The notes under the pieces were generated by a model. The model did no database searches. It was given only the letters and a program-made list of their open reading frames with translations, and had not been told where the DNA came from. The translations under genes and the position numbers were made by a program. Below are positions 7,956-61,395 of a stretch of 64,000 bases of DNA, in pieces. This DNA comes from Bacteroidota bacterium. GTDB lineage: Bacteria > Bacteroidota > Ignavibacteria > Kapaibacteriales > NICIL-2. The stretch covers positions 39,765-103,764 of the forward strand of contig JAIBAE010000004.1 of the NCBI GenBank assembly GCA_019695345.1, written 5' to 3'. Numbering within the stretch: position 1 is the first letter of the stretch; each line of letters opens with the position of its first letter.

Positions 7956-8188
7956 CAGATAGGTTTTTGCTAACGCAGGACGGCAGCGCCCCAATTCAAT
8001 CAAAAACACTCATTTTGCCGATAAGAACCTCAACTTTCCCGGCTACCTTTATCATGGAGAAATAACAGTAAAAATGCCGGCGTAAACGATAAACACATTT
8101 TGCTTGCAGGGGGAGCTGTCCCGCAATACGGTGGTAGGTAAAAGCAGGTCATCAGGTGCGGTCGGGCGAAAGCAAAAAAAAGGTGTGC
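7956..8188. repeat. Composite palindromic copy of the intergenic A/B element family: a degenerate forward half at 7964-7990 and a reverse half at 8116-8181.
   Basis: tttttgctaacgcaggacggcagcgcc ... ctgtcccgcaa ... ggtgcggtcgggcgaaagcaaaaaaaa. Confidence 0.5.
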
Positions 8189-8212
8189 TGAACTACAACA
8201 CACCTTTAACGT
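8176..8212 (-). terminator. Rho-independent terminator for proS.
   Basis: On the minus strand: aaaggtgtgttgtagttcagcacacctttttttttgc. A 7 bp GC-containing stem is followed by a T-run immediately 3' of the proS stop. Confidence 0.6.
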
Positions 8213-8224
8213 TGCAGGTAAAAA

Positions 8225-9694
8225 TTAATATGCTTTGGCGAACAAAACGCGCTGTGCCGATGGCTTGCCCGAGTACACGCATACGCCTTGCTCTTGTGGG
8301 TTATCCAACGGAATGCAACGGATGGTTGCTTTGGTTGCATCTTTTATTGCTTCTTCGGTTTCCGGAGTGCCATCCCAGTGTGCGCTTATAAAGCCACCTT
8401 TGGTTTCCAGAACATTTTTGAATTCATCGAATGTATCTACGTTGGTGATATGTTCATCGCGATATTGTTTTGCACGGTTGAATAAATTCTGCTGAATTTC
8501 TTCCAGAAGATTAACCACATATTCTACAACAGAATTCATGCTGATAACAGTTTTCTCTTTGGTATCTCTGCGGGCAACTTCTACGGTGTTATTTTCAATA
8601 TCACGTTTGCCAATAGCAATACGCACAGGAACGCCACGCATTTCGTACTCGGCAAATTTGAAACCGCTACGTTTGGTGTCGTCGGTATCGTACTTAGCAC
8701 GAATACCACGCGACTTCAGGTTATCAAGAATAGAATTGGCAACGCCATCTACAACATCGCCTGTTGTTGGTATTGGAACAATAACAACCTGTAATGGTGC
8801 AAGACGTGGTGGTAACACCAAACCATCGTCATCGGAGTGCGTCATAATCAAGCCACCAATTAAACGCGTACTAACTCCCCACGAGGTAGCCCAAACGTAC
8901 TCTTGTTGATTTTGCGAGTTGAGATATTTAACTTCGAATGCTTTTGCAAAGTTTTGACCCAAAAAGTGCGATGTACCTGCCTGCAATGCTTTACCATCTT
9001 GCATCAACGCTTCAATACAATACGTATCTTCTGCTCCGGCAAAACGTTCGCTTTCGGTTTTAACACCTTTAATAACAGGCATAGCCATAAAGTTTTCGGC
9101 AAAGTCTGCATATACATTTAGCATACGTACGGTTTCCTCACGTGCTTCTTCGCTTGTTGCATGCGCGGTGTGTCCTTCTTGCCAAAGGAATTCGGCAGTA
9201 CGTAAAAACGGACGGGTGCGCATTTCCCAACGGACAACGTTTGCCCATTGGTTTATAAGCAATGGCAAATCGCGGTAGCTCTGAATCCAATCTCGGTACG
9301 TGTTCCAGATAATTGCCTCGCTTGTTGGGCGAACTACTAATTCCTCTTCCAATTTAGCGGCGGGGTCAACAATAAGTTTGCCTTTGTGTTCAGTATCTGC
9401 CTTTAAACGGTAATGCGTTACCACGGCACATTCTTTTGCAAAGCCCTCTGCATTTTTTTCTTCTGCTTCAAATAAACTTTTTGGTACAAACAACGGGAAG
9501 TACGCATTAACGTGACCTGTGTCCTTAAACATCCGGTCGAGCGCATCGCGCATGTTTTCCCAAATGGCATAACCTGTAGGTTTAATAACCATACAACCGC
9601 GCACAGCAGAGTTATCCGCCAACTGTGCTTTTTTAACAATATCCAAATACCACGCAGAGTAATCTTCCGCTCTTGGTGTTATTTCCTTTGCCAT
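8225..9694 (-). CDS. proS: Prolyl-tRNA synthetase, archaeal/eukaryotic-type class II ProRS.
   Basis: Translation begins [27 protein letters not shown]... The likely start is the internal Met at 9694. Class II motifs and the C-terminal Zn/anticodon region are typical of the Bacteroidota-type ProRS. Confidence 0.9.
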
Positions 9695-9774
9695 AACAAA
9701 CTTTCTACTGCAAATAATGAAACGTACATAATCAACTACATACAAATGTACGAAGTTCGGCTGCAAGTACGGTA

Positions 9775-9820
9775 TTTGCTATCGCGGGACGGCACCAAAC
9801 GTTCTTGTACGGGCAGAATT
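9775..9820 (+). repeat. Degenerate A/B element, forward, just upstream of the proS start.
   Basis: tttgctatcgcgggacggcaccaaa ... gtacgggcagaa. Confidence 0.4.
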
Positions 9821-9941
9821 TCTGCCCCAACTGCCTTTATACTGCCGGAGAGAAAGTTGAGTTATAACAATATATTCAGTCTTCTGAAACATAAGAGTTG
9901 TGGCTTTGTCATATTATGAAAACTCAATCTATGGATATGTT

Positions 9942-10406
9942 ATGATTAAGCTACTTCCAATTGTTGTCACAATGCTGCTTTATTCTGAAACTCTGTTTGC
10001 CGATGGCAAGTCGTTCTTTCCCGATTTTAGCGTTAATGCAGGAGTCAAACTTGGGTATCAATGGAGTAAAAAAAGTAGTTTTATATGGGGTGTGGAAGTA
10101 AGTGCAGTATATAACAACAGAGTTAACTGTATTTATGGAATTGTACTTGATATGGATAAAGGTGACTTTGGTAGTAAAGTACATATTGGTGCGCAGGCAT
10201 CAATACTGTATGGCGGTGCAGAGATTGGACCAACCTTTTTTACATTTAGAGATGGTAAAAAAGAAACAGGTTGGGGAATATCTATTTTTAGTGGTTTGTT
10301 ATTATATCCCAACTATACATTCTCATTTACAAATACCGATGTCACCATCCACGAATTGGATTTGCTTATTAAATATCCTGCCTTTCAGTACTTTAAAACA
10401 TATTAG
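9942..10406 (+). CDS. Hypothetical small secreted or outer-membrane protein.
   Basis: The ORF is 9900..10406. The likely start is MIKLLPIVVTMLLYSETLFA, a signal peptide. Alternating hydrophobic residues are rich in Y, G and F and look beta-barrel-like. The gene is flanked by A/B elements at 9775 (forward) and 10570 (reverse). Confidence 0.45.
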   Translation: MIKLLPIVVTMLLYSETLFADGKSFFPDFSVNAGVKLGYQWSKKSSFIWGVEVSAVYNNRVNCIYGIVLDMDKGDFGSKVHIGAQASILYGGAEIGPTFFTFRDGKKETGWGISIFSGLLLYPNYTFSFTNTDVTIHELDLLIKYPAFQYFKTY

Positions 10407-10507
10407 AATAGTATTCTTCTAATTGTTACAATTACAGATTCAGTGTTGTTTTTTCATCAACACAGACCCGTTTTTGTTTTCAGAAACATACGTTCAGAAA
10501 AAAGCGG

Positions 10508-10570
10508 TATTTTCCCGCCGCCAGAGGGCGGGGTAATTGGTGCCTTTTGGTGCGGTCCGGCGATAGCAAA
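10508..10570 (-). repeat. Intergenic A/B element, reverse copy, 15 bp upstream of the 10585 start.
   Basis: ttttcccgccgcc ... ggtgcggtccggcgatagcaaa. Confidence 0.55.
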
Positions 10571-10584
10571 TAATACAGTGAACC

Positions 10585-12525
10585 ATGAATACTAATTCTG
10601 AACATCACGCCAGAGAATTGTTGCAAGAAGCAGAACAATGCTGGCAGAAAAATTTAACTCATGCCAAACGACTTCTTGAAGAAGCATTACAGGTTTCCTT
10701 ACAGTTACAGAATGAACTTTTAACAGCGGATGTATTACTGCTGCGTTCTGTTGTGTTTGCAGATGCACGCGAACACGAAAATGCCGAGCGTGATGCAAGG
10801 TCTGCCTTACTTACTTACAAAGCACAAGGGAGTGAATTACAAATTGCACAGGCGCTAAAAGCAATTGCTACAACATACTCATACCGAAGTATGTTTGCGG
10901 AGTCTGTTGAGTATTGCAAACAGGTTCTTGAAATAGCTGAACGTTTGAATAATACTCCGTTGGTGATTGATATGTATGCGCGTATTGGTTGGGATAACCA
11001 CAGCCAGAATATCTACGCCGAGGCACTTGAGTATTTTAATAAAGCACTTGCTTTAGCCAAAGAGATAAACGATGAAATGCGTATTGCCAGTTGTATGGCA
11101 GATATTGCAGCTGTCCTTACACGCACTGCTAAACTTGAAGACGCTATTGTGTATTTACAGAATGCCTTGGCAATCTATGAGAAGTTAGATGTTCAGCGAG
11201 GGAGAATGCGGTGTATAAGCGACCTTGCCTTAATTTATGCCCGGCTTCACGATTATGCAACCGCCCTGCAAATGAATTTCCAGGCGTTAGAAATTGCAGA
11301 GAAAATTCAGTTGACATATTCGCAAGCGGTAGCATTCACAAATATTGCTGTAGTGTATTACAACTTGTTCGATTTAGCGCAGTCGGTTGTGTACTTAAAG
11401 AAGGCTCTTGCAATACATGAACTAAACAACGACCCATTAGGCATAGCCACTAACCTAAGCAATATTGTTGTAATCTATACCGAGCTGAAAGATTACAATG
11501 ATGCAATTGAATTTGCCGAGCGCGGTTTGGAGATAAGCAAGAAGATTAACTCAAAAGATTTGATTGCGCTTAATTATGCAAATCTATCTACAGTGTATGT
11601 TGGAGTCCGTAATTACAATAAAGCGTTGGAATGTGCAGAAGAATCGTTAAGAGTTCATAGAGAACTTGGATATACTGTAGGTGTGATAAACAGTTTAATT
11701 AATAAAGGTGCTGTACTGCAAGTATTGAATAAGTATAGCGAAGCAGAATCGTGTTTTACAGAAGTGTTACCGTTGCTACAAGAAGCACAAAATATCGAGG
11801 CTCAAACAAAAGTATATCTTGGTTTAAGTACACTATTTGCAACCAAGGAATGGAATAAGTATAATCCGGAACAAAGCGAAGCATGGTTGTTGGATGCAGA
11901 AAAAATCAATACCAATACTGTTGATAGAAACGATGAACTATACTACAAACTATCGGAGTTTTATGAGCAGAAACAAGAATATAATAAAGCGTTAGAATAC
12001 ATTAAAAAAGCTAATGCTATTCACAACGAAGTATTCTCCGGCGAGACGGCAAAGCAAGTATTAACACTACGAGCTGAGCGTGAACTTGCCGCTAAAGAGA
12101 AACAACGCTTGATTATAGAAAACGAAAGGGAAGTAGCACGTAAGGATGCTGAAATCTACCGCTTAGAAAAAATAGAACTTGCCGCTCGTAATAAAACAAT
12201 TGAAGAACAAAACGAACAACTCCATATCAAACAACAGCAGCTGAATATTTCAAATAATAAACTGCGTCAGGCCATTGCCGATTTAGCTACTCTCACTGCA
12301 TCGCGCAAAGCACGTACATACTTTATGATGTTCATGATTCTGTTGTTTGTATTTTCCGAAGTGGTGGTTGAGCCAATAATACAGTTTATCACCAGCTCGG
12401 TTATCGTTGGTATGTTGCTTCGGTTTGGAATTGGTTTGCTATTCCGTCCCATAGAAGCTTTTGCCGAACACTTGACTACTAAAAAACAACGCGAAGAAAT
12501 TTTAGATACAGCTAAGTCTGCATAG
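10585..12525 (+). CDS. TPR-repeat protein with a C-terminal coiled coil and a transmembrane segment.
   Basis: There are many 34-aa TPR-like helices (A-x-x-Y, L-x-x-A-L patterns). A C-terminal heptad coiled coil (EKQRLIIENEREVARKDAEIYRLEKIELAARNKTIEEQNEQL) is followed by a hydrophobic stretch, FMMFMILLFVFSEVVV. No kinase domain is present. Confidence 0.7.
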   Translation: MNTNSEHHARELLQEAEQCWQKNLTHAKRLLEEALQVSLQLQNELLTADVLLLRSVVFADAREHENAERDARSALLTYKAQGSELQIAQALKAIATTYSYRSMFAESVEYCKQVLEIAERLNNTPLVIDMYARIGWDNHSQNIYAEALEYFNKALALAKEINDEMRIASCMADIAAVLTRTAKLEDAIVYLQNALAIYEKLDVQRGRMRCISDLALIYARLHDYATALQMNFQALEIAEKIQLTYSQAVAFTNIAVVYYNLFDLAQSVVYLKKALAIHELNNDPLGIATNLSNIVVIYTELKDYNDAIEFAERGLEISKKINSKDLIALNYANLSTVYVGVRNYNKALECAEESLRVHRELGYTVGVINSLINKGAVLQVLNKYSEAESCFTEVLPLLQEAQNIEAQTKVYLGLSTLFATKEWNKYNPEQSEAWLLDAEKINTNTVDRNDELYYKLSEFYEQKQEYNKALEYIKKANAIHNEVFSGETAKQVLTLRAERELAAKEKQRLIIENEREVARKDAEIYRLEKIELAARNKTIEEQNEQLHIKQQQLNISNNKLRQAIADLATLTASRKARTYFMMFMILLFVFSEVVVEPIIQFITSSVIVGMLLRFGIGLLFRPIEAFAEHLTTKKQREEILDTAKSA

Positions 12526-12590
12526 TATGCTATCGCAAACCGCACCAAGCCTTGCATACCAGACAACCGTAGTGGTGCGGGAGAGAAGGG
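12526..12590 (+). repeat. Intergenic A/B element, forward copy, starting one nucleotide after the TAG stop of the TPR gene.
   Basis: tatgctatcgcaaaccgcaccaag ... ggtgcgggagagaaggg. The stem is ccgcacca/tggtgcgg. Confidence 0.6.
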
Positions 12591-12653
12591 TAGTGTATAC
12601 AGAAAGATGATATTCAGACATCACTAATAATTCTTCAATAGACCTTATTCAGA

Positions 12654-13560: not shown

Positions 13561-13648
13561 TTTATACTTATAGATTTTGGAGGACTCTCCGGCATAGGAA
13601 CTTGTTGGTGGTACTTGCCGCCCGGTGCCGTCACGCGCCAGCATATAA

Positions 13649-14962
13649 TTATTTCTTTGTGATAAACGTTGCAATATCATCGAGAAGGATATCCGCAACA
13701 TGACCTTCGGCTTGGTATTCCGTAGGTGTGGATTTGCCGGTGCCTTCCATAAACAAATGGTTGAGTGTTGGGTATAACTTTTTGGTGATGTTTTTACGGT
13801 TACCCCAGTAGGTATCCCATGCTTTGTAATCGGTTGTTGTTACCTGGTAGTCGCGCTCGCCTTGTGCTATAAAAAAGCGTACCGATTGCGGTACGTTTTG
13901 TCCGTGTTTGGGATTCAGCATCTCTCTTAACGAGAGCCAATAGTTGCCCGGTAAATTAAGCGGCAGTGTTTCCGGTGATGTGTTGGTTGTTAGTGTTGGC
14001 GACTTAGCCGCTTTAACTCGTTTTTCAATTACCTGAAGTTGTTTCTTGGATTCGGCATCAGTGCCTAACAAGTATTTCATTTGGTCTAAGATTACATCTT
14101 CTAACGGGCGTGGTGAACCGGCAAGTATAATTGCACCGGCAATGTTTGTTGCTTTAGCCGAGATATACGGTGCGCACATACCGCCAAGTGAGTGACCGCA
14201 CAAGTACACAGCATTGGTATCAACTCCTTGCATTGTTTTAGCAAATTGTAGTGCGGTAATGGCATCGTTAATGGTTTCATCGAAAACAGTTATGCCATTG
14301 GTGTCGGTTGAGGCATCGTTGGCGTACATAAAGGTGCGTTTATCGTAACGGATTACACCAACTCCGCGTTTTGCCAAACCAAGAGCAATATCGCGGAAAG
14401 GTTTGTTTGGACCTATTGTTTCGTTTTTATCGTTAGGACCCGAACCATGCACTAATACTACAACAGGGAAGTTCGTTTTACCAACGGGCTTTGTATAGAT
14501 TCCTGTTAGGGTAAAGTTGCCGTTTGTAATTGCAATAAGTTGTTCGTTCACGAATGCGTTGTTTACAAGAGCTTGTTCAATTTTTTCTTTGGGTCGGTCT
14601 AAAAAGAATCCGGCTACTTTACCATCAGTTTGGAGGGTTACTCTAAACGTAACACTCGCTTTTTCAAATTCTACCGGAACTGCGTATATGGTAAAGGTAT
14701 CGCGGGTGGAGCTGGTGATGTCATCGCTAATGGATTTTATAGCACCATTCATTTGTTCAATGCTTTGCATGCTTAATTTTATTTTTTCTTCCGTTACCAA
14801 TTTTGCAAAACCCGGAGAGAAAAATCCGAGACTCTCTTTGTACTTTTTATCTTTTAGATGTTCAATTAATGCTTTGGCTTGTTGTGGAGTGTTCTGGGCA
14901 AATAGCGATGTAGAGAAGAGTACACCGAATATTACGAGAGTAATTTTGGAAACGGACTTCAT
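13649..14962 (-). CDS. Secreted alpha/beta-hydrolase-fold serine hydrolase.
   Basis: Signal peptide MKSVSKITLVIFGVLFSTSLFAQ. A nucleophile elbow G-H-S-L-G-G sits in a dienelactone-hydrolase/peptidase S9-like context (VVVLVHGSGPNDKNE...). Confidence 0.75.
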   Translation of the reverse strand: MKSVSKITLVIFGVLFSTSLFAQNTPQQAKALIEHLKDKKYKESLGFFSPGFAKLVTEEKIKLSMQSIEQMNGAIKSISDDITSSTRDTFTIYAVPVEFEKASVTFRVTLQTDGKVAGFFLDRPKEKIEQALVNNAFVNEQLIAITNGNFTLTGIYTKPVGKTNFPVVVLVHGSGPNDKNETIGPNKPFRDIALGLAKRGVGVIRYDKRTFMYANDASTDTNGITVFDETINDAITALQFAKTMQGVDTNAVYLCGHSLGGMCAPYISAKATNIAGAIILAGSPRPLEDVILDQMKYLLGTDAESKKQLQVIEKRVKAAKSPTLTTNTSPETLPLNLPGNYWLSLREMLNPKHGQNVPQSVRFFIAQGERDYQVTTTDYKAWDTYWGNRKNITKKLYPTLNHLFMEGTGKSTPTEYQAEGHVADILLDDIATFITKK

Positions 14963-15179
14963 GTCTGGTACCTTGTTAGTTCTGAAATTATGTTGCAATA
15001 TATTGAATGATTAATCATACGCACAAGGATTTGTCCCGCAAGTGGATTGATTTATTGGTAACAAATGCCCGGTGCGGAACTGCGACAGCAAAAGAATATT
15101 TATTGATGACATATACAGAACAGAGATTCTATTGTGTATTTTCGCGTGTGAAAGAATTACTCACCGCAGAAAAACAGGA

Positions 15180-16124: not shown

Positions 16125-16170
16125 TATTTTTCTTGCCGGAAGCTCCAAACCACAAACAATAAAGGCGTGT

Positions 16171-16207
16171 TTATTCAACACGCCTTATCGTTGTTTTTGC
16201 ATGGGCA
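16171..16207 (+). terminator. Rho-independent terminator.
   Basis: aaaggcgtgtttattcaacacgccttatcgttgtttttgc. The aggcgtgtt/aacacgcct stem is followed by a T-run, 3' of the gene ending at 16124. Confidence 0.55.
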
Positions 16208-21145: not shown

Positions 21146-21200
21146 GATGTTTTAATAGGGTAATACAATAGTAAATACAAATATAGAAGTAACTACTGTA

Positions 21201-21268
21201 TTTTTGCTATCGCGTGACCGCACCGAACGTTAATGCTACATTTACCAACAGCTTGCGGGAGAGGAACT
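21201..21268 (+). repeat. Intergenic A/B element, forward copy.
   Basis: tttttgctatcgcgtgaccgcacc ... gcttgcgggagaggaac. Confidence 0.6.
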
Positions 21269-21387
21269 CAAGTTTCAAATTTGTACGAATCGTGATTGTA
21301 GATTAGTACATATATAAGCAAGAGTTTAGAATGCGCATTATTGAGGAATTCCATCATACATCAACATAGTACGCTGATAATAAAGTA

Positions 21388-23279
21388 ATGAGTAAACGTT
21401 TTAAATATCTACATATCAGTGTAATAATCTTCTTTACAAGCATTTGTACTACCTTATCTCAAGCACCTGTTGTATGGGATAATCTTAAAACAGATAGTAT
21501 AATGTTATTTGGTATGGAGGGTAGATTAAATACAGGTGACTTTTGGGGTGGTATAGGATACTACAGTGGGAAAGCACATCCTACTTTAGGAAATGGGGTC
21601 AGAGGTACAATATTTTTTGGCAATGATATTATTCCAAAAGTTAAATTGAAAGATATTAATGCCGCAAGAGGTAAGTATTTATTATTGCCAAATGGTAAAG
21701 TTTATTGTGGTACAGGTATGACACCTATATTATATGAGTTATCAAACGAAGGCAAGCAGTGGGATACTGTAGTTAACTTTTACAAAGACTATGGTTTGAA
21801 TAGTGATGTCCGAGTTTTAGAAGCAGATAAAATGGGAGTAATTTACCTTGGAACAAAAGACGGTAGCTTTTTACGATCAACAGATTTAGGAGATACGTGG
21901 CAGGATATTGTTTACCAAGGTAATGCACCGGAGAAGTTAATTTTTGATGAGAACAATACGATGTTTCATCAAACTGAATTTATAGGACAGCAACGATTAC
22001 ACAAGAGCACTGATTATGGTCAAACATGGCAACGTTTGGATTCATTATTATTATTGCCTTACAATAGATTATCGGCTGAATGGTTAATTACATATTATAT
22101 GTTTGGTAGATTATTAGTGTATTATAATAACACCAGTATTGATGATCAAGTTCGGGTTTTATTGACCGCAGATAAAAATGGAAATAGTGCTACTGAACTT
22201 GTTATGGGTAGAAGACTAGACTTTAATACGAATGTACCGCAGTTTATCATTGAAGATTCACACATACATTACATAGTCTATCCTATAGTACTGGTTCTTT
22301 GCAATATAGCATAGACTCTGGCAAAACCTGGCGGGAAACAGGGTATATTGATCCTCGTCCCGATGCACGCCCTATTGTTTATGATACAGTACAGCATATT
22401 CGATATGATTCTTTGGATATTGGTATGTATCCAACAGACCATTTAACTTTATTACCCACCGGTCATATCCATATAAGCCATTTTCATTATCGGTCACGGT
22501 TCAGTAATCCAACTCCACCACAACGCATATCAAGTATGGTTAGGTGCGGGTATGCAACTGAAACATTTGTCAGTGATACTTTAACAATGGTAGAGGTGGT
22601 GAAAGCTGGGAGTATGAATGTAATAGTACGATATGATACCATTGTACCCAAACGTTCTATACAGGTGCATATTTATAGTAAAGATACATCGCAGTATGCA
22701 CATTTTCTTGTTCGTGCAAAAAATTCGAAAGGATATGAGACCCAATGGAGTGAAGATATGTTTCCAAGGGTAAAACAAGAACTAACAATCCGTAGGGCTT
22801 CAAACATTAAACAAGTAGATACACTTGATGCAGGGTTTGCCGTAAACTATGTATGGTACAGAAACGGAATCAAAGTGACATATCCAAACAACCCTACGTT
22901 TTTATGGTTTTACCGAACAATGCCATTAGATTCGGTTGGCACCTACTGGTGTGAAATTTTCGATACAACAGGGTGTGTACAAACAACCGCACCGTACACC
23001 TACAACCCTGTAAGTGTACCGGAGGAAACTAACACTGAAATTCGGGTATTTCCAAACCCTGCAAACGAGAGTATAACTATTACAGGCATTGGCGATTTGG
23101 TAGGACAAATAGAAATCATTGATATGTTGGGGAATGTGCTGTTGGTATCCGACGCGAGGCATCGTGCCGCTACGGGTATGGGTGTAATTGATATTCGCGA
23201 GTTACCAAACGGTGTATACGGTGTTCGTATTCCAACATCACACGGTCTATATCAAACACGGTTTGTTGTTGCACGATAG
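21388..23279 (+). pseudogene. BNR/Asp-box repeat secreted protein with a T9SS CTD. The reading frame breaks near 22290-22315, so this is a frameshifted gene or a sequencing error.
   Basis: ORFs 21388..22314 and 22299..23279 overlap by 16 nt in different frames. The first has a signal peptide and SxDxGxTW Asp-boxes (STDLGDTWQ, STDYGQTWQ). The second starts inside another Asp-box (SIDSGKTW) and ends with a T9SS CTD (VFPNPANESITI...YQTRFVVAR). Confidence 0.55.
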
Positions 23280-24130: not shown

Positions 24131-24192
24131 TCTCCGGCAAGTGGATTGTTGTACTATGAACAATGGTTCGGTGCCGTCAGGCGATAGCAAAA
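24128..24192 (-). repeat. Intergenic A/B element, reverse copy.
   Basis: tctctccggcaa ... ggtgccgtcaggcgatagcaaaa. Confidence 0.55.
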
Positions 24193-24207
24193 AATAAATG
24201 ACATGTT

Positions 24208-25545: not shown

Positions 25546-25885
25546 TTTGAGCTTTTCTTTTGTGTTGTGAATGCTGTATCGTTCATCTACCGATTGTCAT
25601 GCTCGTGAAAACGGGCAACCCATTTCTACGAATGGAGAGATTTCTGGATTCCCGATAAACGCTTCATCAGCGTTTTCGGGAATGACAATCTTTACCTTGC
25701 TGAACAGAAACTGACTCCAAATGAAGATTGATGGAATTCTTAATTTGTATCTCAAAGATAATGTTTCTTCCGTATTGTGACGGAATATCAGTAAAGCGTA
25801 GTTTTGCGTTGGAGGAACTCTCCCGCACCAAGACGGTTGTACTTGTAGTGTTATTTGGAGCGGTTGAACAAAAAAAAATATTCTT

Positions 25886-45306: not shown

Positions 45307-45445
45307 TTTTTGCTAACGCAAGCCGTACCACATCTTGTGCTTTTAAAGGCCATACCACGCGGGACAGAATCTTAGCAAAGGAAACTTCCCGCACAATGTC
45401 GTGCTTTGTTATAGTGTCATTTGATGCGGTCTGGCGATAGCAAAA
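45305..45445. repeat. Head-to-head pair of A/B elements forming an imperfect palindrome of about 140 bp (MITE-like) between convergent genes.
   Basis: tttgctaacgcaagccgtacc ... cgcgggacag ... cttcccgcac ... gatgcggtctggcgatagcaaaaaaaa. Confidence 0.6.
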
Positions 45446-45450
45446 AAAAA

Positions 45451-47663: not shown

Positions 47664-47739
47664 TTCGTTACTCCAATAAATGTAAGGTAAATTTGTGGCG
47701 CGAAAATACAGTATGCTATACTTTTTGCAATACGGTAGT

Positions 47740-47880
47740 TTTTTGCTGTCGCCTGACCGCACCAAATCACACTTCTACAAACGCCCTTATATTGCGGGAA
47801 AGGAACACAGACTTACTTCTCTCCCGCATAGTAAGGATTATTGACTGATAACGTTCGGTGCGGTCTGGCGATAGCAAAAG
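47740..47880. repeat. Head-to-head pair of A/B elements forming a palindrome of about 140 bp.
   Basis: ttttttgctgtcgcctgaccgcacc ... attgcgggaaaggaac ... ttctctcccgca ... ggtgcggtctggcgatagcaaaag. Confidence 0.65.
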
Positions 47881-47886
47881 TTATTA

Positions 47887-49538: not shown

Positions 49539-49560
49539 TGAATATACATGTATATAAAGT

Positions 49561-49626
49561 TTATGCTTTCGCCTGACCGCGCCAAATATACGCATAAGGA
49601 ATAACCCTTATTGTGCGGGAAAGGTG
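49561..49626 (+). repeat. Intergenic A/B element, forward copy.
   Basis: tgctttcgcctgaccgcgcc ... ttgtgcgggaaagg. Confidence 0.6.
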
Positions 49627-49746
49627 ATTCGGTAAAGAAACTACTGTTCACCGTGTAGTTGTAGAGTAAAATCAATGCTGTGCATACAGAAAAAGTTGTA
49701 GTTTAGAATCAGATATTATTTTCTCAATACTCTGACACACAACATC

Positions 49747-50321: not shown

Positions 50322-51308
50322 ATGAAAAAGCTAACTAAAAGAAAACCAATAGGATTCTTACCATTTAGCATAACTGCTTATTGTATTGCAGTGCTCTTAC
50401 CGATACTTGCAGTATTACATGTATTAAACCAAGCTGATTTTGTTGACCCTGCTAAAACAATTAGAAAATCTAATACCTATGCAGTACAGGCTCAATATGA
50501 TAAAGAAGATTCACGTTTTATGTGGCCTTTAAAGAGAGAGTATGCATATCACATTTCCAATAGCTATCCAGATATTTCAATATGGGAATATAAAATTGAG
50601 AATGAAGCACAAGATTTAAGAATAAAAACGAATACTATTATATTAGGAAGTAACAGGTTCACCAAACTTATATATTCAGACCATCCAAAACATAGCCAGA
50701 GCAAACTACAAAGTCATGCAATGTTGATTACTGTTTATTACAACAATACTGGTATTCACGTTTGTACCATGGATACGTTGATGCAGACATATCTACCTTC
50801 CATGCAATCACAAATGTTATATGATGTTGCAAGGTTTGTTAAACAACACAGAGCATTGTATCCAGATATATTTAGTGAAATTGTTCTATTGTATAAAGTT
50901 GCACCGGAGGTATTGTTTGGTGATGCAATGAGTTTATATGATGGCTTGTTACCGTTAGGTAACATACAAGGAGTCAAAATTCTACATTCTAATTATCTTG
51001 GAGATGTAAATACTATTATTAGAAAGATAAAGTATTATAATACAATAAAAGTAGATTCGCACTTTGATCCATATCCTAAGCCCATAAATTGTGGTTTAAT
51101 TGGGTGTTGTTGTGTTAGATTACCTGAACCTTCAAATGCAATGCTGTTATCAATGAAGTTAACTGATACACTTACTATTTTTTTGTTATCCTATTTTCTA
51201 TTACTCGTGGTGGTGGTATATCTATCCGGAAGTTTGTATTTCTTTAGAGGTAAACGAAGAACAGTTCTTCTTCATCGCCTTTCTCTCCCGCAAATTGAGG
51301 TTGTATAG
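50322..51308 (+). CDS. Hypothetical bitopic membrane protein.
   Basis: An N-terminal signal-anchor (ITAYCIAVLLPILAVLHVL) and a C-terminal transmembrane segment (LTIFLLSYFLLLVVVVYL). The CGLIGCCCV Cys cluster is notable. The final residues are encoded by an A/B element. Confidence 0.45.
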   Translation: MKKLTKRKPIGFLPFSITAYCIAVLLPILAVLHVLNQADFVDPAKTIRKSNTYAVQAQYDKEDSRFMWPLKREYAYHISNSYPDISIWEYKIENEAQDLRIKTNTIILGSNRFTKLIYSDHPKHSQSKLQSHAMLITVYYNNTGIHVCTMDTLMQTYLPSMQSQMLYDVARFVKQHRALYPDIFSEIVLLYKVAPEVLFGDAMSLYDGLLPLGNIQGVKILHSNYLGDVNTIIRKIKYYNTIKVDSHFDPYPKPINCGLIGCCCVRLPEPSNAMLLSMKLTDTLTIFLLSYFLLLVVVVYLSGSLYFFRGKRRTVLLHRLSLPQIEVV

Positions 51309-51343
51309 TGGTTGCCATTGGGCGCGGTCGGGCGATAGCAAAT
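51279..51343 (-). repeat. A/B element, reverse copy, overlapping the 3' end of the upstream CDS.
   Basis: ttctctcccgcaaa ... ggcgcggtcgggcgatagcaaa. Confidence 0.55.
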
Positions 51344-51481
51344 ACCTATATAGTACCTAAAATCCTGCCTGTAGGTAAAATCTGCTTGCATTGTTGATGT
51401 AAACGTCCTAATTTACGGTAATTCCAAAAGGGGATAGTAGCTTACCAATATTACTTTTACTTATCACACAAGAGGTACCAT

Positions 51482-52948: not shown

Positions 52949-52970
52949 CACGCACAAGGAGAGTATAACA

Positions 52971-54545: not shown

Positions 54546-54559
54546 TACAACGCACATCT

Positions 54560-54600
54560 AAATATAAAGCCGTGGTAATTATACTACGGCTTTTTTTATT
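54560..54600 (+). terminator. Rho-independent terminator.
   Basis: aaagccgtggtaattatactacggcttttttta. Confidence 0.65.
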
Positions 54601-54826
54601 GGTGAATCCCGCCTCTGCCGAAGCGAGCAATACTGCGCCGCAACTCGGTCGGGTAAAAACGTTGCAGCACCGCAGGGAATTCCCTCTGTCCTTCGGACAT
54701 CTCCCTTTACCAAAGGGAGAAAAGATATCTTTGTATAATTTAGAGTTAAACAATTGTCCCCTTTAGTAAAGGGGGCGGATTCTCGCGCAGTGAGAATCGG
54801 GGGAATCCACAGTAACAGCATGTATT

Positions 54827-55213
54827 ATGTCGAAATTTGTTGTAGGCAAATACCACTTACCGTATAATCCCAATCTGAAGGAGAAGGCAAGAGAACTACG
54901 AAATAACATGACAGAGACAGAACGTATAGTTTGGAAGCATTGTTTGCAAAAGTTTAGAATACCTGTTCTTCGCCAACGGCCAATTGATAATTACATTGTT
55001 GACTTTTACATTGCATCGCATAAACTTGTGATTGAGATTGATGGCGTACAACACTCTACCGAATCAGGTAAGGAATATGATGAAAACAGAACAAACATCC
55101 TTGCAGGATACGGACTTACAGTTCTACGATTTACGAATGCAGATGTGTTATCTAACTTACAATCAGTATGTTCTGTAATATCACATACAATTACCAACGA
55201 AATCATAACATAA
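54827..55213 (+). CDS. DUF559/Vsr-like endonuclease-domain protein.
   Basis: RELRNNMTETERIVWKHCLQKFRIPVLRQRPIDNYIVDFY...VIEIDGVQH...RTNILAGYGLTVLRF matches the DUF559 consensus. Confidence 0.7.
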   Translation: MSKFVVGKYHLPYNPNLKEKARELRNNMTETERIVWKHCLQKFRIPVLRQRPIDNYIVDFYIASHKLVIEIDGVQHSTESGKEYDENRTNILAGYGLTVLRFTNADVLSNLQSVCSVISHTITNEIIT

Positions 55214-55425
55214 GAACACTTTTTTACTATTGCGCAGCACTTCGCCGGGTTCGCGCCGGGTCTGCGCGCTGGAAGGGTTGTTGCGGCAGATAAGAGTACC
55301 CAAAAATCTTCTACCGATACAGGTTCTTTCTGTTGGGTAAAAAGCATTATCTTTGTATGCTTGTTTGTTAGGGGACGTAACTACAGGCATTCCCACGTAA
55401 GTTTAACTTTACTTATAGCAACATT

Positions 55426-56511
55426 ATGTTTCAAGACTTAGAAATGTACGGGCATGAGCAAGTTGTTTTTTGTTCAGACCCAAAAAGCGGATTAAAAGCG
55501 ATTATTGGAATCCACGACACCACGTTGGGTCCGGCACTTGGCGGTACACGTATGTGGAATTATGCCTCTGATGCCGAAGCTATCACCGATGTTTTACGTT
55601 TATCACGCGGTATGACCTATAAAGCGGCTGTTGCCGGGTTAAACTTAGGTGGCGGTAAAGCAGTAATTATTGGCGATGCAAAGACACAAAAATCAGAAGC
55701 GCTATGGCGTTCGTATGGAAGATTTGTTGAAACATTACGCGGACGTTACATAACAGCAGAAGATGTTAACACATCAGTTGCCGATATGGAGTATATCCGT
55801 ATGGAAACGCGATTTGTTACTGGTGTTGCGGGAAGTGGCGGAAGCGGTGACCCTTCGCCATATACAGCGCTTGGCGTGTATTGCGGAATGAAAGCTTCTG
55901 CAAAAGCGCAATACGGTAATGATTCTTTAGCAGGTAAACGCGTTGTTGTTCAGGGTGCAGGAAACGTTGCAAAACACCTGGTAGGACATTTGGTTCAGGA
56001 AGGTGCAACAGTTTTTGTTACTGATATTTTTGAAGACAAAGCTCGTGCGGTATGTGCTGAATACGGTGCAACATATATTACACCCGATGAAGTCTATGGT
56101 TTTGATTGTGATATCTTCTCGCCAAATGCGTTGGGCGCAATTATTAACGATGATACAATCTCCCAACTAAAATGTGCAGTAGTTGCCGGAGGTGCTAACA
56201 ACCAATTAAAAGATGAAAAAGTACACGGTGAAGCATTAAAAGCACGTAACATAATTTACGCACCCGATTATGTTATCAACGCCGGTGGTTTGATTAACGT
56301 TTGTTCCGAAATTGAAAACTGGGGACGCGAGCAAGTTAAACGCAAAGTTGAAGGTATCTACGATACACTTATCAAAATTTACGATACAGCTAAAACTCAC
56401 AACATTTTATCGGTGGAAGCATCCAACAAAATTGCAGAAGAACGCATTGCTGCAGTTCGCCATATACATGGTAGCTTTATGGGGGTTCCAAATATTCGCG
56501 GCGGAAACTAA
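55426..56511 (+). CDS. Glu/Leu/Phe/Val dehydrogenase family protein (leucine/valine dehydrogenase-like).
   Basis: GGGK catalytic-lysine context (LNLGGGKAVIIGD), Rossmann VVVQGAGNVAKHL, and a length of 361 aa. Confidence 0.85.
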   Translation: MFQDLEMYGHEQVVFCSDPKSGLKAIIGIHDTTLGPALGGTRMWNYASDAEAITDVLRLSRGMTYKAAVAGLNLGGGKAVIIGDAKTQKSEALWRSYGRFVETLRGRYITAEDVNTSVADMEYIRMETRFVTGVAGSGGSGDPSPYTALGVYCGMKASAKAQYGNDSLAGKRVVVQGAGNVAKHLVGHLVQEGATVFVTDIFEDKARAVCAEYGATYITPDEVYGFDCDIFSPNALGAIINDDTISQLKCAVVAGGANNQLKDEKVHGEALKARNIIYAPDYVINAGGLINVCSEIENWGREQVKRKVEGIYDTLIKIYDTAKTHNILSVEASNKIAEERIAAVRHIHGSFMGVPNIRGGN

Positions 56512-56567
56512 ACAGATTTTTTATGCCCTCTTGGCATATGCTAAGGGGGCTTTTTTTGTTTAAACCT

Positions 56568-56909
56568 ATGGCATACGATAAACACTTAGCCGGAAGAATC
56601 ACCGATTGCCTGTCGCACATCCAACTGCTGGAAGAAAAGAAGATGTTTGGTGGTGTTGGTTTTATGGTAAACGAAAAACTTTCCGTCGGTGTAATGAATG
56701 ATGAAATGATTGTTCGGTGCGGACCGGAAATTACCGATGACTTGCTTACACAACAGGGAGTGCGTCCGTTTGACTTTACCGGTAAGCCCATGAAAAATTG
56801 GGTAGTAGTGCATCCATCTATTCTTAAAACCGATGCGCAGTTGCAAGAGTGGATTAACATCGCATTAGACTACAACAAAAAAGCAAAGAAAAGTAAAAAG
56901 AAAAAGTAA
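56568..56909 (+). CDS. TfoX N-terminal domain protein.
   Basis: The likely start is MAYDKHLAGRITDCL...EKKMFGGVGFMVNEKLSVGV, matching TfoX_N. The C-terminus is Lys-rich. Confidence 0.55.
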   Translation: MAYDKHLAGRITDCLSHIQLLEEKKMFGGVGFMVNEKLSVGVMNDEMIVRCGPEITDDLLTQQGVRPFDFTGKPMKNWVVVHPSILKTDAQLQEWINIALDYNKKAKKSKKKK

Positions 56910-56975
56910 CTGCTATCGCCAGACCGCACCAAACCTTGCATTACAGTCCATCCACACTTTTGCGGGAAGAAACGT
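56910..56975 (+). repeat. Intergenic A/B element, forward copy, between convergent genes.
   Basis: ctgctatcgccagaccgcaccaaa ... ttttgcgggaagaaacg. Confidence 0.6.
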
Positions 56976-57899
56976 TTACAACTTCCAAACAACTTTCTCT
57001 ATGTAAATTAACCTGCCACAGAAAAGCCCGATACCATCGCCGTTTATATTCCAATTGATATTCGTGCCGCCGCTGGAGAAAGCTCCATTACTGCCACTAC
57101 CACTACGGCGAGTGGTGTAGTATTCGTAGAATGGAAAGTCATTTAAATTCACAATCATAAAAGTATTATCGGATTTTTTCATTGAGTCAATGTGAGAAGT
57201 TGAAGTAGCATAGAGTGTTCTACTACCATATAGTGGGTAGCTTTTACTACCATCGTTCTTAGAACTCATAAAATTCCGTACTGCAAATTGGATACTTGAA
57301 AACGTTGTTGTATCATTAACTACATCTTGTGTCGTTAACAAAATACTAGGCGTACTCTTGGTATAAGCAAACCCAAATACCTGATATGGAAGCTTAGCAG
57401 ATATGTTATAAGATGCTATGTAATAGAGTGTTGAGTCTTTATCATCAAAATATACATAGTTAGTCCAATACTCATATTCAGTCTCAAAGGATGGAAGTGT
57501 TGGGATGGTTGTGGTAGCAGTAATGTTATGTCCTTTCCAACTTGCTTTAAGATTGTAAGTAATACCTGGTTGCACATATAAGGTATCGCCGTTTGATTTT
57601 ATTGCTACATAAAATCCCATACGTACATGCCGCATGGTTGCAGTATCTCCGGCGTTGGTGATAATAGTTGCATCAACATTTGTGAGACGGAAAGCCGCAG
57701 TATCGTATGGTTGTTTACTTACTACATCGGTTAACGGCGGCATTGTTTTAGAAAATGTGATTTGTAATGGAAGTCCGGATGTTATCATTCCGTCCACAAC
57801 TATTTTCTCTATGTACGGAAGTGTACCAAAGTCAACTACTGTTTCCCTGCAAGAGAGCAAGAGTACACAGCATACAACTATTAGTAATACATTTCTCAT
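56976..57899 (-). CDS. DUF4249-like lipoprotein (TonB-dependent-receptor-associated).
   Basis: Lipobox LLSC. A paralog of the next gene with the same length of 307 aa. Begins GTLPYIEKIVVDGMITSG... Confidence 0.55.
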   Translation of the reverse strand: MRNVLLIVVCCVLLLSCRETVVDFGTLPYIEKIVVDGMITSGLPLQITFSKTMPPLTDVVSKQPYDTAAFRLTNVDATIITNAGDTATMRHVRMGFYVAIKSNGDTLYVQPGITYNLKASWKGHNITATTTIPTLPSFETEYEYWTNYVYFDDKDSTLYYIASYNISAKLPYQVFGFAYTKSTPSILLTTQDVVNDTTTFSSIQFAVRNFMSSKNDGSKSYPLYGSRTLYATSTSHIDSMKKSDNTFMIVNLNDFPFYEYYTTRRSGSGSNGAFSSGGTNINWNINGDGIGLFCGRLIYIEKVVWKL

Positions 57900-58819: not shown

Positions 58820-58920
58820 AGTTAGATGTATGTCAATTCTATAATGCGATGCTGAACGATTGGCTCCGCCTGTGTGCCGGAGCAGTTCGGTTGCTGCGGC
58901 AGAAGCGGGTTACCCAATAT

Positions 58921-61263
58921 CTAAAACTTAACACTTAGCCCAAATGTTGGAATTAACGGGAACAACGTAATTTGTTTTACCACTTTTTTAGAAGACTGTG
59001 TTGTGTTGTCGTATTCGGTTGCGATGTACTGTGCAAATGGATTTTTGTGATTGTATGCGTTATAAATGTTGATGGAAACTTGCCACGGAAGTTTAAACCA
59101 ACTGAATGAGTGCATAAAGTTTAAATCCATTTTGTGGAATGCCGGCAAACGATAGCCATTGCGTTCGCTATAATCGTAACGGATGCGGTCGCCAAATAAT
59201 CCGTTGTTGGGATAGTTAGGAATAACGTACACGCCTGTAGGCATTGTGTATGCTTGCCCTGTGCCATATACCCATGTAGCACCTAACTCCCACGATTCCC
59301 CAATACGGTAGGTTAGTGCTATGGATATATCGTGACGTCTGTCGTATCGTGGGTAGAATGGTTTCCCGTTGTTTAGTTCATCAAAGTAACGTTTGGTCCA
59401 CGATAATGTATAGCCAATCCATCCGGTAAACGAACCTACTTGTTTGTTTAAGAATACTTCTGCTCCGTATGCCTCGCCAAGACCTACAGTAAACTGCGAT
59501 TCGAGTGGTAAACCAAGCGAGAAGTTAGCGGTATCGCGGTATTCGTACAAGTTGCGCATGTCTTTGTAATATGCCTCAACACTGAGTTTGTATTCGTTAT
59601 CGTTCAGTGTTGTTTCGTAACCAAGTGTTCCTTGAATTGAGCGCGAAGGTTTAACTGTTTCGGTTGATGGAAACCACAAATCGGTTGGTAAAGCTATATC
59701 GTTACGTACAATAAGATGTAAGAACTGATGCGCCATCGCAAACGAGGCATTGATTCTCGATTCCGGAGTTAATGAATATGCTGCGGATAATCGTGGTTCG
59801 AACTGGAAGTAATTTCCTTGGTTAAAATAATATAATCTGCCACCAAGGTTAGTTGTCAGGTTTTCTGTTGCATCCCATTCGTCTTGTACATACAACGCAC
59901 CTTCAAAAGCATTTTTGGTAGTGGCGCGGAAGATTAACTCGTTACTATTTGGTGCGAGTGAATCGCTTGCATTTGCGGTGAACTTATGCAAAATAGTTTC
60001 AAACCCGGCTTTTATGCGATGTTCGGCAGCGGGGAAGTATTGAAGTTCGCCGCGTGCCATGTAATCACGGATTTGCGATAACGTAGAGAATGTAAAGTCC
60101 GACGACGTGTTGGGATTATGTTCTCCAAACGAGGTGTTAAAACTGTAGTCGGTATAAATTGCCGAGAAGTTTGTAAACACTTCGTCGGAGTGGATGTGCA
60201 TCCAGCGAATGTTTGCTGTTGAGTTTCCCCAATCAATACCAAAAGTGCTTCCTTGGTCGCGCTCCCGTTTTGGTTCGGCCAATACATCTTTACCAAAGTA
60301 ACCACTTACAAACAGACGGTCGTTTTCGCCAAGTTTGTAGTTTACTTTTGCATTTAAATCGTAGAAGTAATAGGTGGGAGTTTCATCGCGCGAGGCAGGA
60401 CTTAACATAGCAAGCAGTACATCCAAATACATACGTCTGCCGGAAATCATAAAGGTTGATTCCTTGTTAATAGGTCCTTCCACCATAGCACGTGAAGCAA
60501 TAAGCGAAATACCTGCTGTACCACTTATTTTTTCTTTTGTCCCTTCGCGCATGGTTAAATCTAATACAGAAGAAAGTCTTCCGCCGTATTCGGCAGGGAA
60601 GCCGCCTTTAATAAGTTTAATATCTTTAAGTGCGTCGCTGTTAAACGTAGAAAGAAATCCACCAAGATGCGAAGGATTATACACAATAACGCCATCTAAT
60701 AATGTAAGGTTTTGGTCTGGCGAGCCACCGCGAACGTATAATCCACTTGAAATCTCACTTGCACTTTTTACACCCGGTAACAACTGCAACACGCGGAACA
60801 CATCAACCTCGCCACCCAGCGATGGCATTTGTTGTATAAACTGTGGTGTTACCGTTACCGTACTAATTGTGCTTGTGGGAGTTTCCTTATCGGCTGTAAC
60901 GGTAACTTGTTGTGCTAGCCTTGCCTGCGAAACAATACTTACATCTATACGCTTTGTTTTGCCGCTTACCACAATTGGCACGCGTTGTTTTTTGTAACCA
61001 ATTAACGATACATTCAGAATGTACGTGCCATCGGCAATATTGGGAATAGAAAAGAATCCAAACTTATTTGTGATTGCTCCGCGAAGTGGCTTAGATACGG
61101 AATCCTTGGTAATATACACAGCCGCACCAACAACGGTTTCACCCGATGTGGAATCAGTTACTACTCCGGAAACTGTATATCCCGGTGTAGGCTGTTGCTT
61201 TCGTGCAAAAGCATTACCGCACAACCCCAATACTACTACACAAATACTAAAAATATATCTCAT
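58921..61263 (-). CDS. TonB-dependent receptor with an N-terminal carboxypeptidase-regulatory-like domain.
   Basis: The likely start is MRYIFSICVVVLGLCGNAFA. The N-terminal domain is GVVTDSTSGETVVGAAVYI. The plug region is EISSGLYVRGGSPDQNLTLLDGVIVYNPSHLGGF. The C-terminal beta-barrel ends in F. Confidence 0.8.
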   Translation of the reverse strand: MRYIFSICVVVLGLCGNAFARKQQPTPGYTVSGVVTDSTSGETVVGAAVYITKDSVSKPLRGAITNKFGFFSIPNIADGTYILNVSLIGYKKQRVPIVVSGKTKRIDVSIVSQARLAQQVTVTADKETPTSTISTVTVTPQFIQQMPSLGGEVDVFRVLQLLPGVKSASEISSGLYVRGGSPDQNLTLLDGVIVYNPSHLGGFLSTFNSDALKDIKLIKGGFPAEYGGRLSSVLDLTMREGTKEKISGTAGISLIASRAMVEGPINKESTFMISGRRMYLDVLLAMLSPASRDETPTYYFYDLNAKVNYKLGENDRLFVSGYFGKDVLAEPKRERDQGSTFGIDWGNSTANIRWMHIHSDEVFTNFSAIYTDYSFNTSFGEHNPNTSSDFTFSTLSQIRDYMARGELQYFPAAEHRIKAGFETILHKFTANASDSLAPNSNELIFRATTKNAFEGALYVQDEWDATENLTTNLGGRLYYFNQGNYFQFEPRLSAAYSLTPESRINASFAMAHQFLHLIVRNDIALPTDLWFPSTETVKPSRSIQGTLGYETTLNDNEYKLSVEAYYKDMRNLYEYRDTANFSLGLPLESQFTVGLGEAYGAEVFLNKQVGSFTGWIGYTLSWTKRYFDELNNGKPFYPRYDRRHDISIALTYRIGESWELGATWVYGTGQAYTMPTGVYVIPNYPNNGLFGDRIRYDYSERNGYRLPAFHKMDLNFMHSFSWFKLPWQVSINIYNAYNHKNPFAQYIATEYDNTTQSSKKVVKQITLFPLIPTFGLSVKF

Positions 61264-61329
61264 ACTTAACCTTACATTTTTACTACCGACAATATACGGT
61301 ATTACCATTCAATCATTTGTTAAAGGTTT

Positions 61330-61395
61330 ATTCTGCTATCGCCTGACCGCGCCTAACGCCATATAAGCCACAACCTTTGTGTGCGGGATAGAAGC
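61330..61395 (+). repeat. Intergenic A/B element, forward copy.
   Basis: ttctgctatcgcctgaccgcgcc ... gtgtgcgggatagaagc. Confidence 0.6.

Follow-up and report, generated by a model that had tools for sequence, protein, structure and literature searches.

A family of short bipartite repeats, with a unit of approximately 72 nt, is dispersed through a 64,000-nt stretch (hereafter, the window) of contig JAIBAE010000004.1 (positions 39,765–103,764, forward strand) from the genome of a Bacteroidota bacterium of the order Kapaibacteriales (GCA_019695345.1). The family is real, and no description of it was found in Rfam or in the literature cited here on repetitive extragenic palindromes (REPs) and REP-associated tyrosine transposases (RAYTs). 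We consider the unit, with a probability of roughly 45%, to be a lineage-specific, non-coding, atypical REP-like repeat, which would act as a folded single strand, would have been spread by a Y1/HUH enzyme, and would now be mostly inherited vertically. A previous sequence-only reading of the window had likened the repeats to REPs and bacterial interspersed mosaic elements (BIMEs), and this is still the category that suits them best.

The A box of the unit (GCTATCGCCNGACCGCACC) had 12 matches with up to 3 mismatches in the window compared to 0.01 expected from shuffled sequences, and a hidden Markov model (HMM) built from A-box copies found approximately 20 copies. The covariance model R1, run with filters off, recovered 20 copies, every one with an E-value below 1e-4; the next match had an E-value of 0.41. 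The sequence-only reading had reported an abundant intergenic family of at least 16 copies in both orientations. Copies on both strands were indeed recovered, including all those listed at the time except a "degenerate" one near 55221, which was not detected; this position is the edge of a DUF559 indel, and we do not count it as a family member. Two copies (13577–13648 and 15023–15095, both on the minus strand) were absent from the earlier list. By its map of open reading frames (ORFs) the window is 91.7% coding, yet the 20 copies are all intergenic and account for 27% of the DNA between genes. Two copies have their midpoints within ORF calls that are over-extended; in L001, one of these genes is called to start only beyond the element. 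A number of ORF boundaries in the window, both starts and ends, are mis-set across copies. Rfam 15 gave no matches at the gathering threshold and none at any element at E-values up to 5, in line with the earlier reading, in which the motif was not recognized as a described one. The A box alone, searched against a genome collection, gave single chance matches in GC-rich genomes among the matches listed.

Read from 5' to 3', the unit consists of a T-run, GCTATCGCC-N-GA, CCGCA, a variable G-poor loop of approximately 29 nt, TGCGG, and GARAG. Position profiles and anchored tables were obtained from 47 copies. The A/T-rich 5' flank ends with TTT, the final T being 100% conserved. The A box following the T-run reads GCT-A-T-CGC-C-N-GA and then CCGCA-CC; its positions 1–3 and 6–8 (G, C, T, C, G, C) are invariant, and the foot is GCTATCGC. 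The loop opens with RAACSTT and carries AACC approximately 8 nt ahead of its end. The 3' side, TGC(G/C)GG-A-R-A-G-AA, agrees with the B box proposed before (tgcgggaaag or gagag). The distance from A to B was 28–31 nt in 44 of the 47 copies (outliers of 24, 46, and 49 nt); this range is tighter than the proposed 25–40 nt. The composition of the loop (A 34%, C 28%, T 26%, and G 13%) is strongly strand-asymmetric. GTAG, counted by eye, was present in the 5' flank of 7 of approximately 48 copies, and no conserved motif was found more than approximately 8 nt upstream of the element. The ends of the element (T-run and GCTATCGC vs. GARAG-AA) are not inverted repeats, and no direct repeats flanking the copies were found.

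The only features predicted by RNAalifold were the helix CCGCA/TGCGG (5 bp) and a trivial GC..GC pair. The helix was formed in all 39 hand-picked copies, in which pair 2 was C:G (28) or G:C (11) and never broken, and pair 5 was A:U (32) or G:U (5). When 60 non-orthologous copies were aligned to the model, 98% of stem cells were paired; pair 2 was C:G in 45, G:C in 15, and broken in none, and pair 5 was A:U in 48 and G:U in 6. The observed covariation was reached by none of 500 shuffles, and slid registers fell to 4–48% paired. In the pattern used for scanning metagenomes both S positions of pair 2 were unconstrained; therefore, the recovery of complementary combinations only was not built in. 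Among the remaining alignment columns, none was associated with the G:C state (best uncorrected p = 0.017), which argues against an obvious clonal subfamily. The 5-bp stem is maintained through compensatory change. Covariance modeling of the copies, proposed earlier as a check on structure, came out in favor of a covarying stem of 5 bp. The longer pairing suggested at that time, ccgcacc with ggtgcgg, holds for the core CCGCA/TGCGG and fails for the outer CC/GG pairs, formed in 7 and 2 of the 39 copies. The G-poor and C-rich loop, together with the tolerated G·U pairs, fits a single-stranded form. Folding z-scores of 14 copies against dinucleotide shuffles varied from +1.55 to −2.78 and were centered near 0. 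A second helix, CUAUC/GARAG, was rejected due to a central mismatch in 34 of the 39 copies and no consistent covariation. A kink-turn was considered since GA flanks both strands of the stem, and it was also rejected, as no register with a 3-nt bulge yields a paired C-stem.

The copies found in the window are given below, with scores of the covariance model in bits.

7963–8033, plus strand: degenerate copy (GCTAACGCAGGACGGCA...TGCCGATAAG) with a G:C stem, convergent partner 8108–8179; 38.1 bits.
8108–8179, minus strand: copy directly after the intrinsic terminator of proS (8207–8179) and its T-run; 59.6 bits.
9772–9857, plus strand: copy having a 46-nt loop with an extra hairpin (GGGCAGAA/TTCTGCCC), A side towards the proS start; 43.4 bits.
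10502–10573, minus strand: copy near the TPR gene, whose start codon (10585) is 17 nt from the A side; 59.9 bits.
12523–12593, plus strand: copy 3 nt past the stop of the TPR gene, with an 18-nt variant of the A box (GCTATCGCAAACCGCACC); 51.0 bits.
13577–13648, minus strand: copy 6 nt past the stop of a hydrolase gene (13649–14962), G:C stem; 48.4 bits.
15023–15095, minus strand: copy between divergent genes; 49.9 bits.
21200–21271, plus strand: copy between the divergent M42 peptidase and BNR-like genes, kept in the sister species; 69.5 bits.
24122–24194, minus strand: copy with the A side 19 nt from a methyltransferase start and the B side towards the REPs of the RAYT gene RAYT1, G:C stem; 68.2 bits.
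25810–25875, minus strand: degenerate copy that lost the GCTATCGC foot; 27.8 bits.
28577–28630, plus strand: partial copy (stem, loop, and B box; model positions 19–72) upstream of a gene encoding 4476 aa; 25.0 bits.
42130–42200, plus strand: copy 3 nt past the stop of the 4476-aa gene; 47.3 bits.
45306–45375, plus strand: degenerate copy 5 nt past the stop of an OmpA-family gene, convergent partner 45376–45447; 32.8 bits.
45376–45447, minus strand: copy 9 nt past the stop of a TMEM260-like gene, replaced in strain L091; 58.2 bits.
47739–47810, plus strand: copy with the convergent partner 47811–47881; 69.2 bits.
47811–47881, minus strand: copy 11 nt past the stop of a DUF4260 gene; 68.0 bits.
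49559–49631, plus strand: copy adjoining the start of an outer-membrane efflux (OEP) gene (gene call in L001), G·U stem variant; 56.5 bits.
51275–51345, minus strand: copy antisense between two plus-strand genes, B box overlapping the end of ORF 50322–51308; 67.7 bits.
56906–56978, plus strand: copy forming the entire spacer of the convergent TfoX and DUF4249 genes, with stops 2 nt (A) and 5 nt (B) away; 61.2 bits.
61329–61399, plus strand: copy antisense between two minus-strand genes, A side 26 nt from the start of a TonB-dependent receptor gene; 63.4 bits.

The placement of the copies is polar. In 29 of 35 copies a gene end was closer to the A side than to the B side (p = 1.2e-4), the median distances being 18 nt for A and 117 nt for B. 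For 19 of 41 copies, the A side had the stop codon of a co-oriented gene no more than 20 nt away, typically at 2–11 nt, and for 6 copies it had the start of a divergent gene no more than 30 nt away; by the same criteria, the B side gave 4 (stop) and 2 (start) of 40. These distances confirm the previously described position of copies directly after stops and near starts, the start-adjacent copies being antisense to those genes. With genes on the A side and the spacer on the B side, adjacent copies are as a consequence always convergent, B side to B side. Outward-facing copies bracket proS, the TPR gene, and the DUF4260–OEP pair. In co-directional spacers, 9 copies were sense and 9 antisense to transcription. 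Strong canonical terminators were found at other gene ends (8207–8179, 16162–16186, 47418–47395, 54566–54593, and 56525–56550), and genes directly preceding a copy mostly had none, with the exception of proS, where the copy follows the T-run of the terminator. A terminator scan at the elements revealed nothing but a chance GCGG/CCGC with a T-run at 10519–10503 and the proS terminator upstream of copy 8108. Two of the copies face each other over 640 nt (9858–10501), and the only ORF of this spacer (154 aa, 9942–10406) has no Pfam or NCBIfam match. The hairpin at 56525–56550 (11 bp and a T-run; region 56511–56568) is strong, terminator-like, and located just past a dehydrogenase stop, within the longest TfoX ORF; for this reason the TfoX start is probably downstream, and L001 calls a protein of 113 aa.

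Exact-protein look-ups assigned the window to a metagenome-assembled genome annotated 'Bacteriodetes bacterium' (locus tags K1X91_), which is conspecific with 'Candidatus Kapaibacterium sp.' GCA_046329015.1 (99.5% nucleotide identity). Strains with 95–99.8% nucleotide identity kept all orthologous copies except one, and in the sister species L062 (86% nucleotide identity in the M42 peptidase gene) the copy situated upstream of this gene (21200–21271) was also kept. No copy was found in 68.7 kb from four relatives having 75–81% amino-acid identity in one compared marker protein (M42 peptidase), and the 20.5-kb locus L094, which encodes a homologue of the second window RAYT (RAYT2), contained no bipartite element. 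The bipartite pattern was recovered on 25 short contigs from three sample sets of a metagenome collection and on one predicted viral contig of 51.6 kb (38–40% GC) from a viral collection. Within 24.8 kb of the predicted viral contig (IMGVR_UViG_3300033075_001822; L095/L096) there are 9 full copies and 2 truncated ones, a density similar to that of the window, and no sequence common to this contig and the window was found besides the element. The A-side rule is obeyed there as well, several copies being situated approximately 25 nt upstream of ATG codons preceded by AGGAG. The ORFs of this contig are small and mostly without assigned function; PHROG matches were to an HNH endonuclease and an ATPase. 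It is a phage by prediction, with a genomic island as the alternative. A second viral contig (L097) was discarded as a chance A-box match in DNA with 65% GC. The family therefore appears, as far as the compared sequences indicate, to be restricted to one uncultured Kapabacteria lineage plus one predicted phage contig.

Within the window lineage, the maximal identity between loops of non-orthologous copies was 0.72, which is within the range of maxima for the column-shuffled null (0.55–0.72). The near-invariant boxes contrast with a nearly saturated divergence of the loops, and this indicates that the copies are old and the boxes constrained. The copy 9772–9857 and a copy at an unrelated locus in L081 have the same 17-nt hairpin insertion in the loop and differ in stem pair 2 (G:C vs. 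C:G) and in the length of the A box. On the predicted viral contig, a loop beginning with AAACAACAACAACCAAACACC is common to four copies. Such derived features at different loci show that the family has spread by copying. In three copies of the viral contig, CCGCA-CCG-TGCGG directly follows the foot and forms a short REP-style hairpin, with the distal B box retained. The sole polymorphic site among strains, 45376–45447, is replaced in L091 (12775–13323) by approximately 500 nt with an ORF of 140 aa without a Pfam match. The breakpoints of this replacement extend into the neighboring copy, whose loop and stem largely differ there; the site was considered as a clean excision and rejected as such, being a segment replacement instead. 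The L092 orthologue of the same copy has 7 changes in the 29-nt loop vs. approximately 3% in the flanks, and the region 45369–45467 looks like a local hotspot.

The 5' foot GCTATCGC agrees with the GCTNNCGC foot of published REPs associated with RAYT subclass 2.6 (Bertels group 5). Table S1 of Quentin et al. 2018 contains nine RAYT loci from seven Bacteroidetes species with subclass 2.6 REPs beginning with GCT-N-N-CGC (PMC6006769). Their 5' ends are GCTAGCGC (Aequorivita and Zobellia), GCTGTCGC and GCTATCGC (Flexibacter litoralis), GCTGGCGC (Spirosoma), or GCTGCCGC (PMC6006769). The bipartite element resembles these REPs in the lack of a GTAG foot, in genome-dispersed copies, in the same phylum-level group of hosts, and in the "weaker secondary structure" attributed to them (Quentin et al., 2018; PMC6006769). 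In contrast, subclass 2.6 REPs are 24–35 nt long, with stems of 8–10 bp starting inside the foot and loops of 3–4 nt, whereas the element has a 5-bp stem set off from the foot by C-N-GA, a loop of approximately 29 nt, and a GARAG tail, and no RAYT flanked by it was found. The subclass 2.6 REP of F. johnsoniae, CTTTGCGGGCACGGATTTCAAATCCGCGCTATCG, holds TTGCGGG (the B-box core) and GCTATCG (the foot) in reversed order (PMC6006769); this overlap may be a coincidence or a distant relationship.

With REPs, BIMEs, and REP doublets forming hairpins (REPINs) of Proteobacteria such as E. coli and Pseudomonas, the family has in common a high copy number, extragenic location in both orientations, inverted dimers, foot ends at stop codons, compensatory and G·T changes in the stem, restriction to a species or genus, and vertical inheritance. 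REP termini often abut or supply stop codons (PMC3733652), which matches the A-side rule. Unlike Proteobacterial REPs, the element has neither a GT[AG]G foot nor a stable palindrome. The pairs 7963/8108, 45306/45376, and 47739/47811 are convergent as in a REPIN, but their loops are unrelated and only the boxes are complementary; thus, the long REPIN hairpin cannot form. Bacterial miniature inverted-repeat transposable elements (Correia/NEMIS, ERIC, RUP, and BOX) are likewise small, non-coding, repeated, intergenic, and sometimes co-transcribed, but the element shows no transposon-type terminal inverted repeats, target-site duplication, or matching transposase, and its interior is unconserved. 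Integron attC sites also have short conserved end boxes, a variable center, more conservation of structure than of sequence, a position after stops, and, as proposed for the element, a folded single strand as the active form. In contrast to attC sites, the copies do not form integrase-adjacent arrays, occur in both orientations to genes, and are scattered among housekeeping genes.

Two RAYT genes are located within the window. RAYT1 (ORF 23285–23911) has NHIH and YIQNNP motifs. It is flanked by, and contains in frame, a classical GTAG hairpin, GTAGCGACGCGATGCCTCGCGTCGGA, which occurs nowhere else in the window and is present at the following positions.

23148–23173: GTAGCGACGCGATGCCTCGCGTCGGA REP upstream of RAYT1.
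23603–23620 and 23646–23671: GTAGCGACGCGATGCCTCGCGTCGGA REPs inside the ORF.
23933–23958 and 23996–24021: GTAGCGACGCGATGCCTCGCGTCGGA REPs downstream of RAYT1.

The internal REPs encode the repeated peptide RRDAMPRVL. Insertion of REPs within the gene is a signature of RAYT subclass 2.4 (PMC6006769), and RAYT1, judged by its in-gene REPs, looks like a member of this subclass. RAYT2 (63545 to the right border) is cut by the window end; it is complete in L003 (181 aa, YIHNNP motif) and scored 81.9 against the cut-off of 80 with the NCBIfam model REP_Tyr_transpos. It has the YIH[QN]NP motif of the subclass 2.6 type, but its flanking hairpins are of another type (GTCAGGTGTTACACCTGAC; window 63516–64000, L003 8962–10418). 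Both RAYT2 and its 57%-identical homologue in L094 are flanked by GTCAGGTGYTACACCTGAC hairpins. In strain L004 (8635–8804), RAYT2 is missing together with a 169-aa paralogue of the neighboring 165-aa gene; a duplicated segment of approximately 40 nt, gtttgtttcataaaaaaagtccgatgggtagtcggacttt, is found at both borders of the RAYT2 region, which suggests loss by recombination deletion in L004. The sequence-only reading had raised the possibility that the window's RAYTs mobilize the bipartite element, and the presence of two such genes in 64 kb and of the copy 24122–24194 only 211 nt downstream of RAYT1 might speak for it. However, RAYT1 comes with its own GTAGCGACGCGATGCCTCGCGTCGGA hairpins, RAYT2 and the L094 homologue with those of the GTCAGGTGTTACACCTGAC type, and the L094 locus has no element, so neither gene is the partner of the element; that the element is the cognate REP of a window RAYT is largely refuted and hardly credible. 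A RAYT encoded elsewhere in the genome is a possible partner. No third RAYT was found by tblastn and a motif scan in the lineage DNA examined, nor by a word-based homologue search.

If the repeats are REP-like, as we tentatively prefer, the element would be read as a folded single strand, single-stranded DNA being likelier than RNA. The reader would be a protein, with a RAYT-type HUH/Y1 transposase encoded elsewhere in the genome as the likeliest candidate. Such a transposase would recognize the foot together with the 5-bp stem, and its insertions would be placed immediately 3' of T-rich runs. As these runs occur after stops and, on the opposite strand, before starts, this preference would explain the polarity. 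At present the copies would mainly be inherited vertically.

Several other explanations were weighed against this one. The element could be a host-serving RNA, whose foot, stem, and tail bind a host protein or sit in the footprint of the terminating ribosome and thereby tune mRNA 3'-end stability or termination; we regard this, the main rival, as rather unlikely. Approximately 45% of the copies, those starting 2–11 nt after a stop codon, would be transcribed in sense, with 19 of 41 A sides not more than 20 nt from a stop. REPs of E. coli near stop codons reportedly affect mRNA 3'-end stability or translation termination. Conserved boxes and saturated loops, with no recent duplicates seen in the window lineage, suggest purifying selection on each copy; the tolerated G·U pairs and the G-poor loop, the mostly missing canonical terminators of genes before a copy, and the similar density on the predicted phage contig, as for a host-read signal, point the same way. 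However, the equal numbers of sense and antisense copies in co-directional spacers do not fit, and approximately one quarter of the copies are antisense just upstream of start codons, with no conserved upstream promoter for them. The fold is unstable and has no Rfam match, and absence from the relatives at 75–81% amino-acid identity argues against an old conserved RNA. The random orientation towards transcription and the narrow taxonomic range favor the REP-like repeat over a host-serving signal. A related non-selfish variant, in which the folded single strand is a recognition site for a host protein at gene borders (for RNA 3'-end formation or processing or for DNA transactions), selected at each locus and shared by phage, seems unlikely to us; if true, such a site would represent a novel class of signals at gene boundaries in Bacteroidota or the Fibrobacteres–Chlorobi–Bacteroidetes (FCB) group.

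Still less probable is a duplex DNA site, where a nucleoid-associated or boundary protein would bind boxes A and B approximately four helical turns apart and mark gene borders. The constant box spacing (28–31 nt in 44 of 47 copies), the independence of orientation from transcription, and the location of copies at gene borders on both host and phage-like DNA are consistent with it. In contrast, the strict coupling of pair 2 (45 C:G, 15 G:C, and 0 mixed) is predicted by pairing and not by independent half-sites, and the strand-asymmetric loop and one-sided G·U changes indicate a single strand. An intrinsic, possibly bidirectional, terminator or attenuator, as proposed in the sequence-only reading, is very improbable. 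Similarly to Rho-independent terminators, the copies follow stop codons or lie between convergent genes, at 56906–56978 even filling the whole spacer, but they have no tight GC-rich hairpin and are thermodynamically unstable. A 5-bp stem with a loop of approximately 29 nt is not followed by a T-run 3' of the stem on either strand, and in co-directional spacers antisense copies are as numerous as sense ones. A fold no more stable than shuffles (z near 0) and without a U-tract is no intrinsic terminator; moreover, a canonical terminator precedes the copy at proS and follows the copy at tyrS (L003). The promoter consensus of Bacteroidota is TTTG/TAnnTTTG, and TTTG-N18/19-AAnnTTG in the positional profile of the copies resembles it; the element might therefore be a portable promoter or small-RNA gene, with TTTG as the −33 box and the loop start RAACSTTG approximately 19 nt further on as a −7-like box. 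We give this very little weight. The best-conserved bases, GACCGCACC, would lie in the promoter spacer, the supposed −7 positions (AAnnTTG) are 54–72% conserved, the B box and the covarying stem would be unexplained, and, by a tally from copy coordinates and the map of ORFs, 9 of the 20 copies in the window face no gene that they could drive, but another copy or a convergent gene's 3' end. A promoter or small-RNA gene belonging to the element itself is disfavored: neither a conserved −33 box nor any further conserved box was seen upstream, and the copies are not oriented towards genes.

Some observations weigh against an atypical REP-like repeat spread by a transposase. The fold is weak, with z-scores near 0, whereas classical REPs form stable hairpins; a stable imperfect palindrome of 20–40 nt, by which REPs are defined, is not formed by a 5-bp stem and a loop of approximately 29 nt. 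The match of the foot to subclass 2.6 comprises 6 fixed bases only. Copies on the plus and minus strands are interleaved, without the single orientation that replication-strand bias would give. No two non-orthologous loops are nearly identical in the window lineage, which agrees with in-place selection on each copy no less than with continuing transposition. Among the strains compared, neither a clean empty site nor a target duplication came to light. No RAYT or other transposase flanked by the bipartite element was found; there was no RAYT paralogue on the 3.28-Mb contig of GCA_046329015.1 (JAXLVM010000001.1) among the best 120 of 6216 profile-search matches and no RAYT relative in the viral collection.

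REP-type repeats are well studied in Proteobacteria, and in Bacteroidota they are known only from a brief note on "atypical secondary structures" beside one RAYT subclass. The family described here shows that an abundant element of this kind can combine a conserved foot with a covarying stem of minimal length, a long free loop, and strict polarity to gene ends. It offers a concrete, testable substrate for the poorly characterized RAYTs of Bacteroidota and a practical marker for assembling, binning, and annotating genomes of the lineage.

Apart from the repeats, the window contains a gene of a DUF559 (Vsr-like) endonuclease (54827–55213) on a 563-nt segment (54666–55229) with GC-rich palindromic flanks. 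This segment is absent from strain L091, which has 18 nt in its place, and the position near 55221 is its right edge. Two giant genes, both with tandem repeats, were also found: one at 1–7692 on the minus strand, running off the left end of the window and having a repeat period of approximately 249 nt, and another at 28702–42132 on the plus strand (4476 aa). The 5' part of the orthologue of the 4476-aa gene (L093) matches repeats in both giant genes with 70–89% nucleotide identity. The repeats of these genes produce spurious weak matches to the Rfam family snoZ30a.

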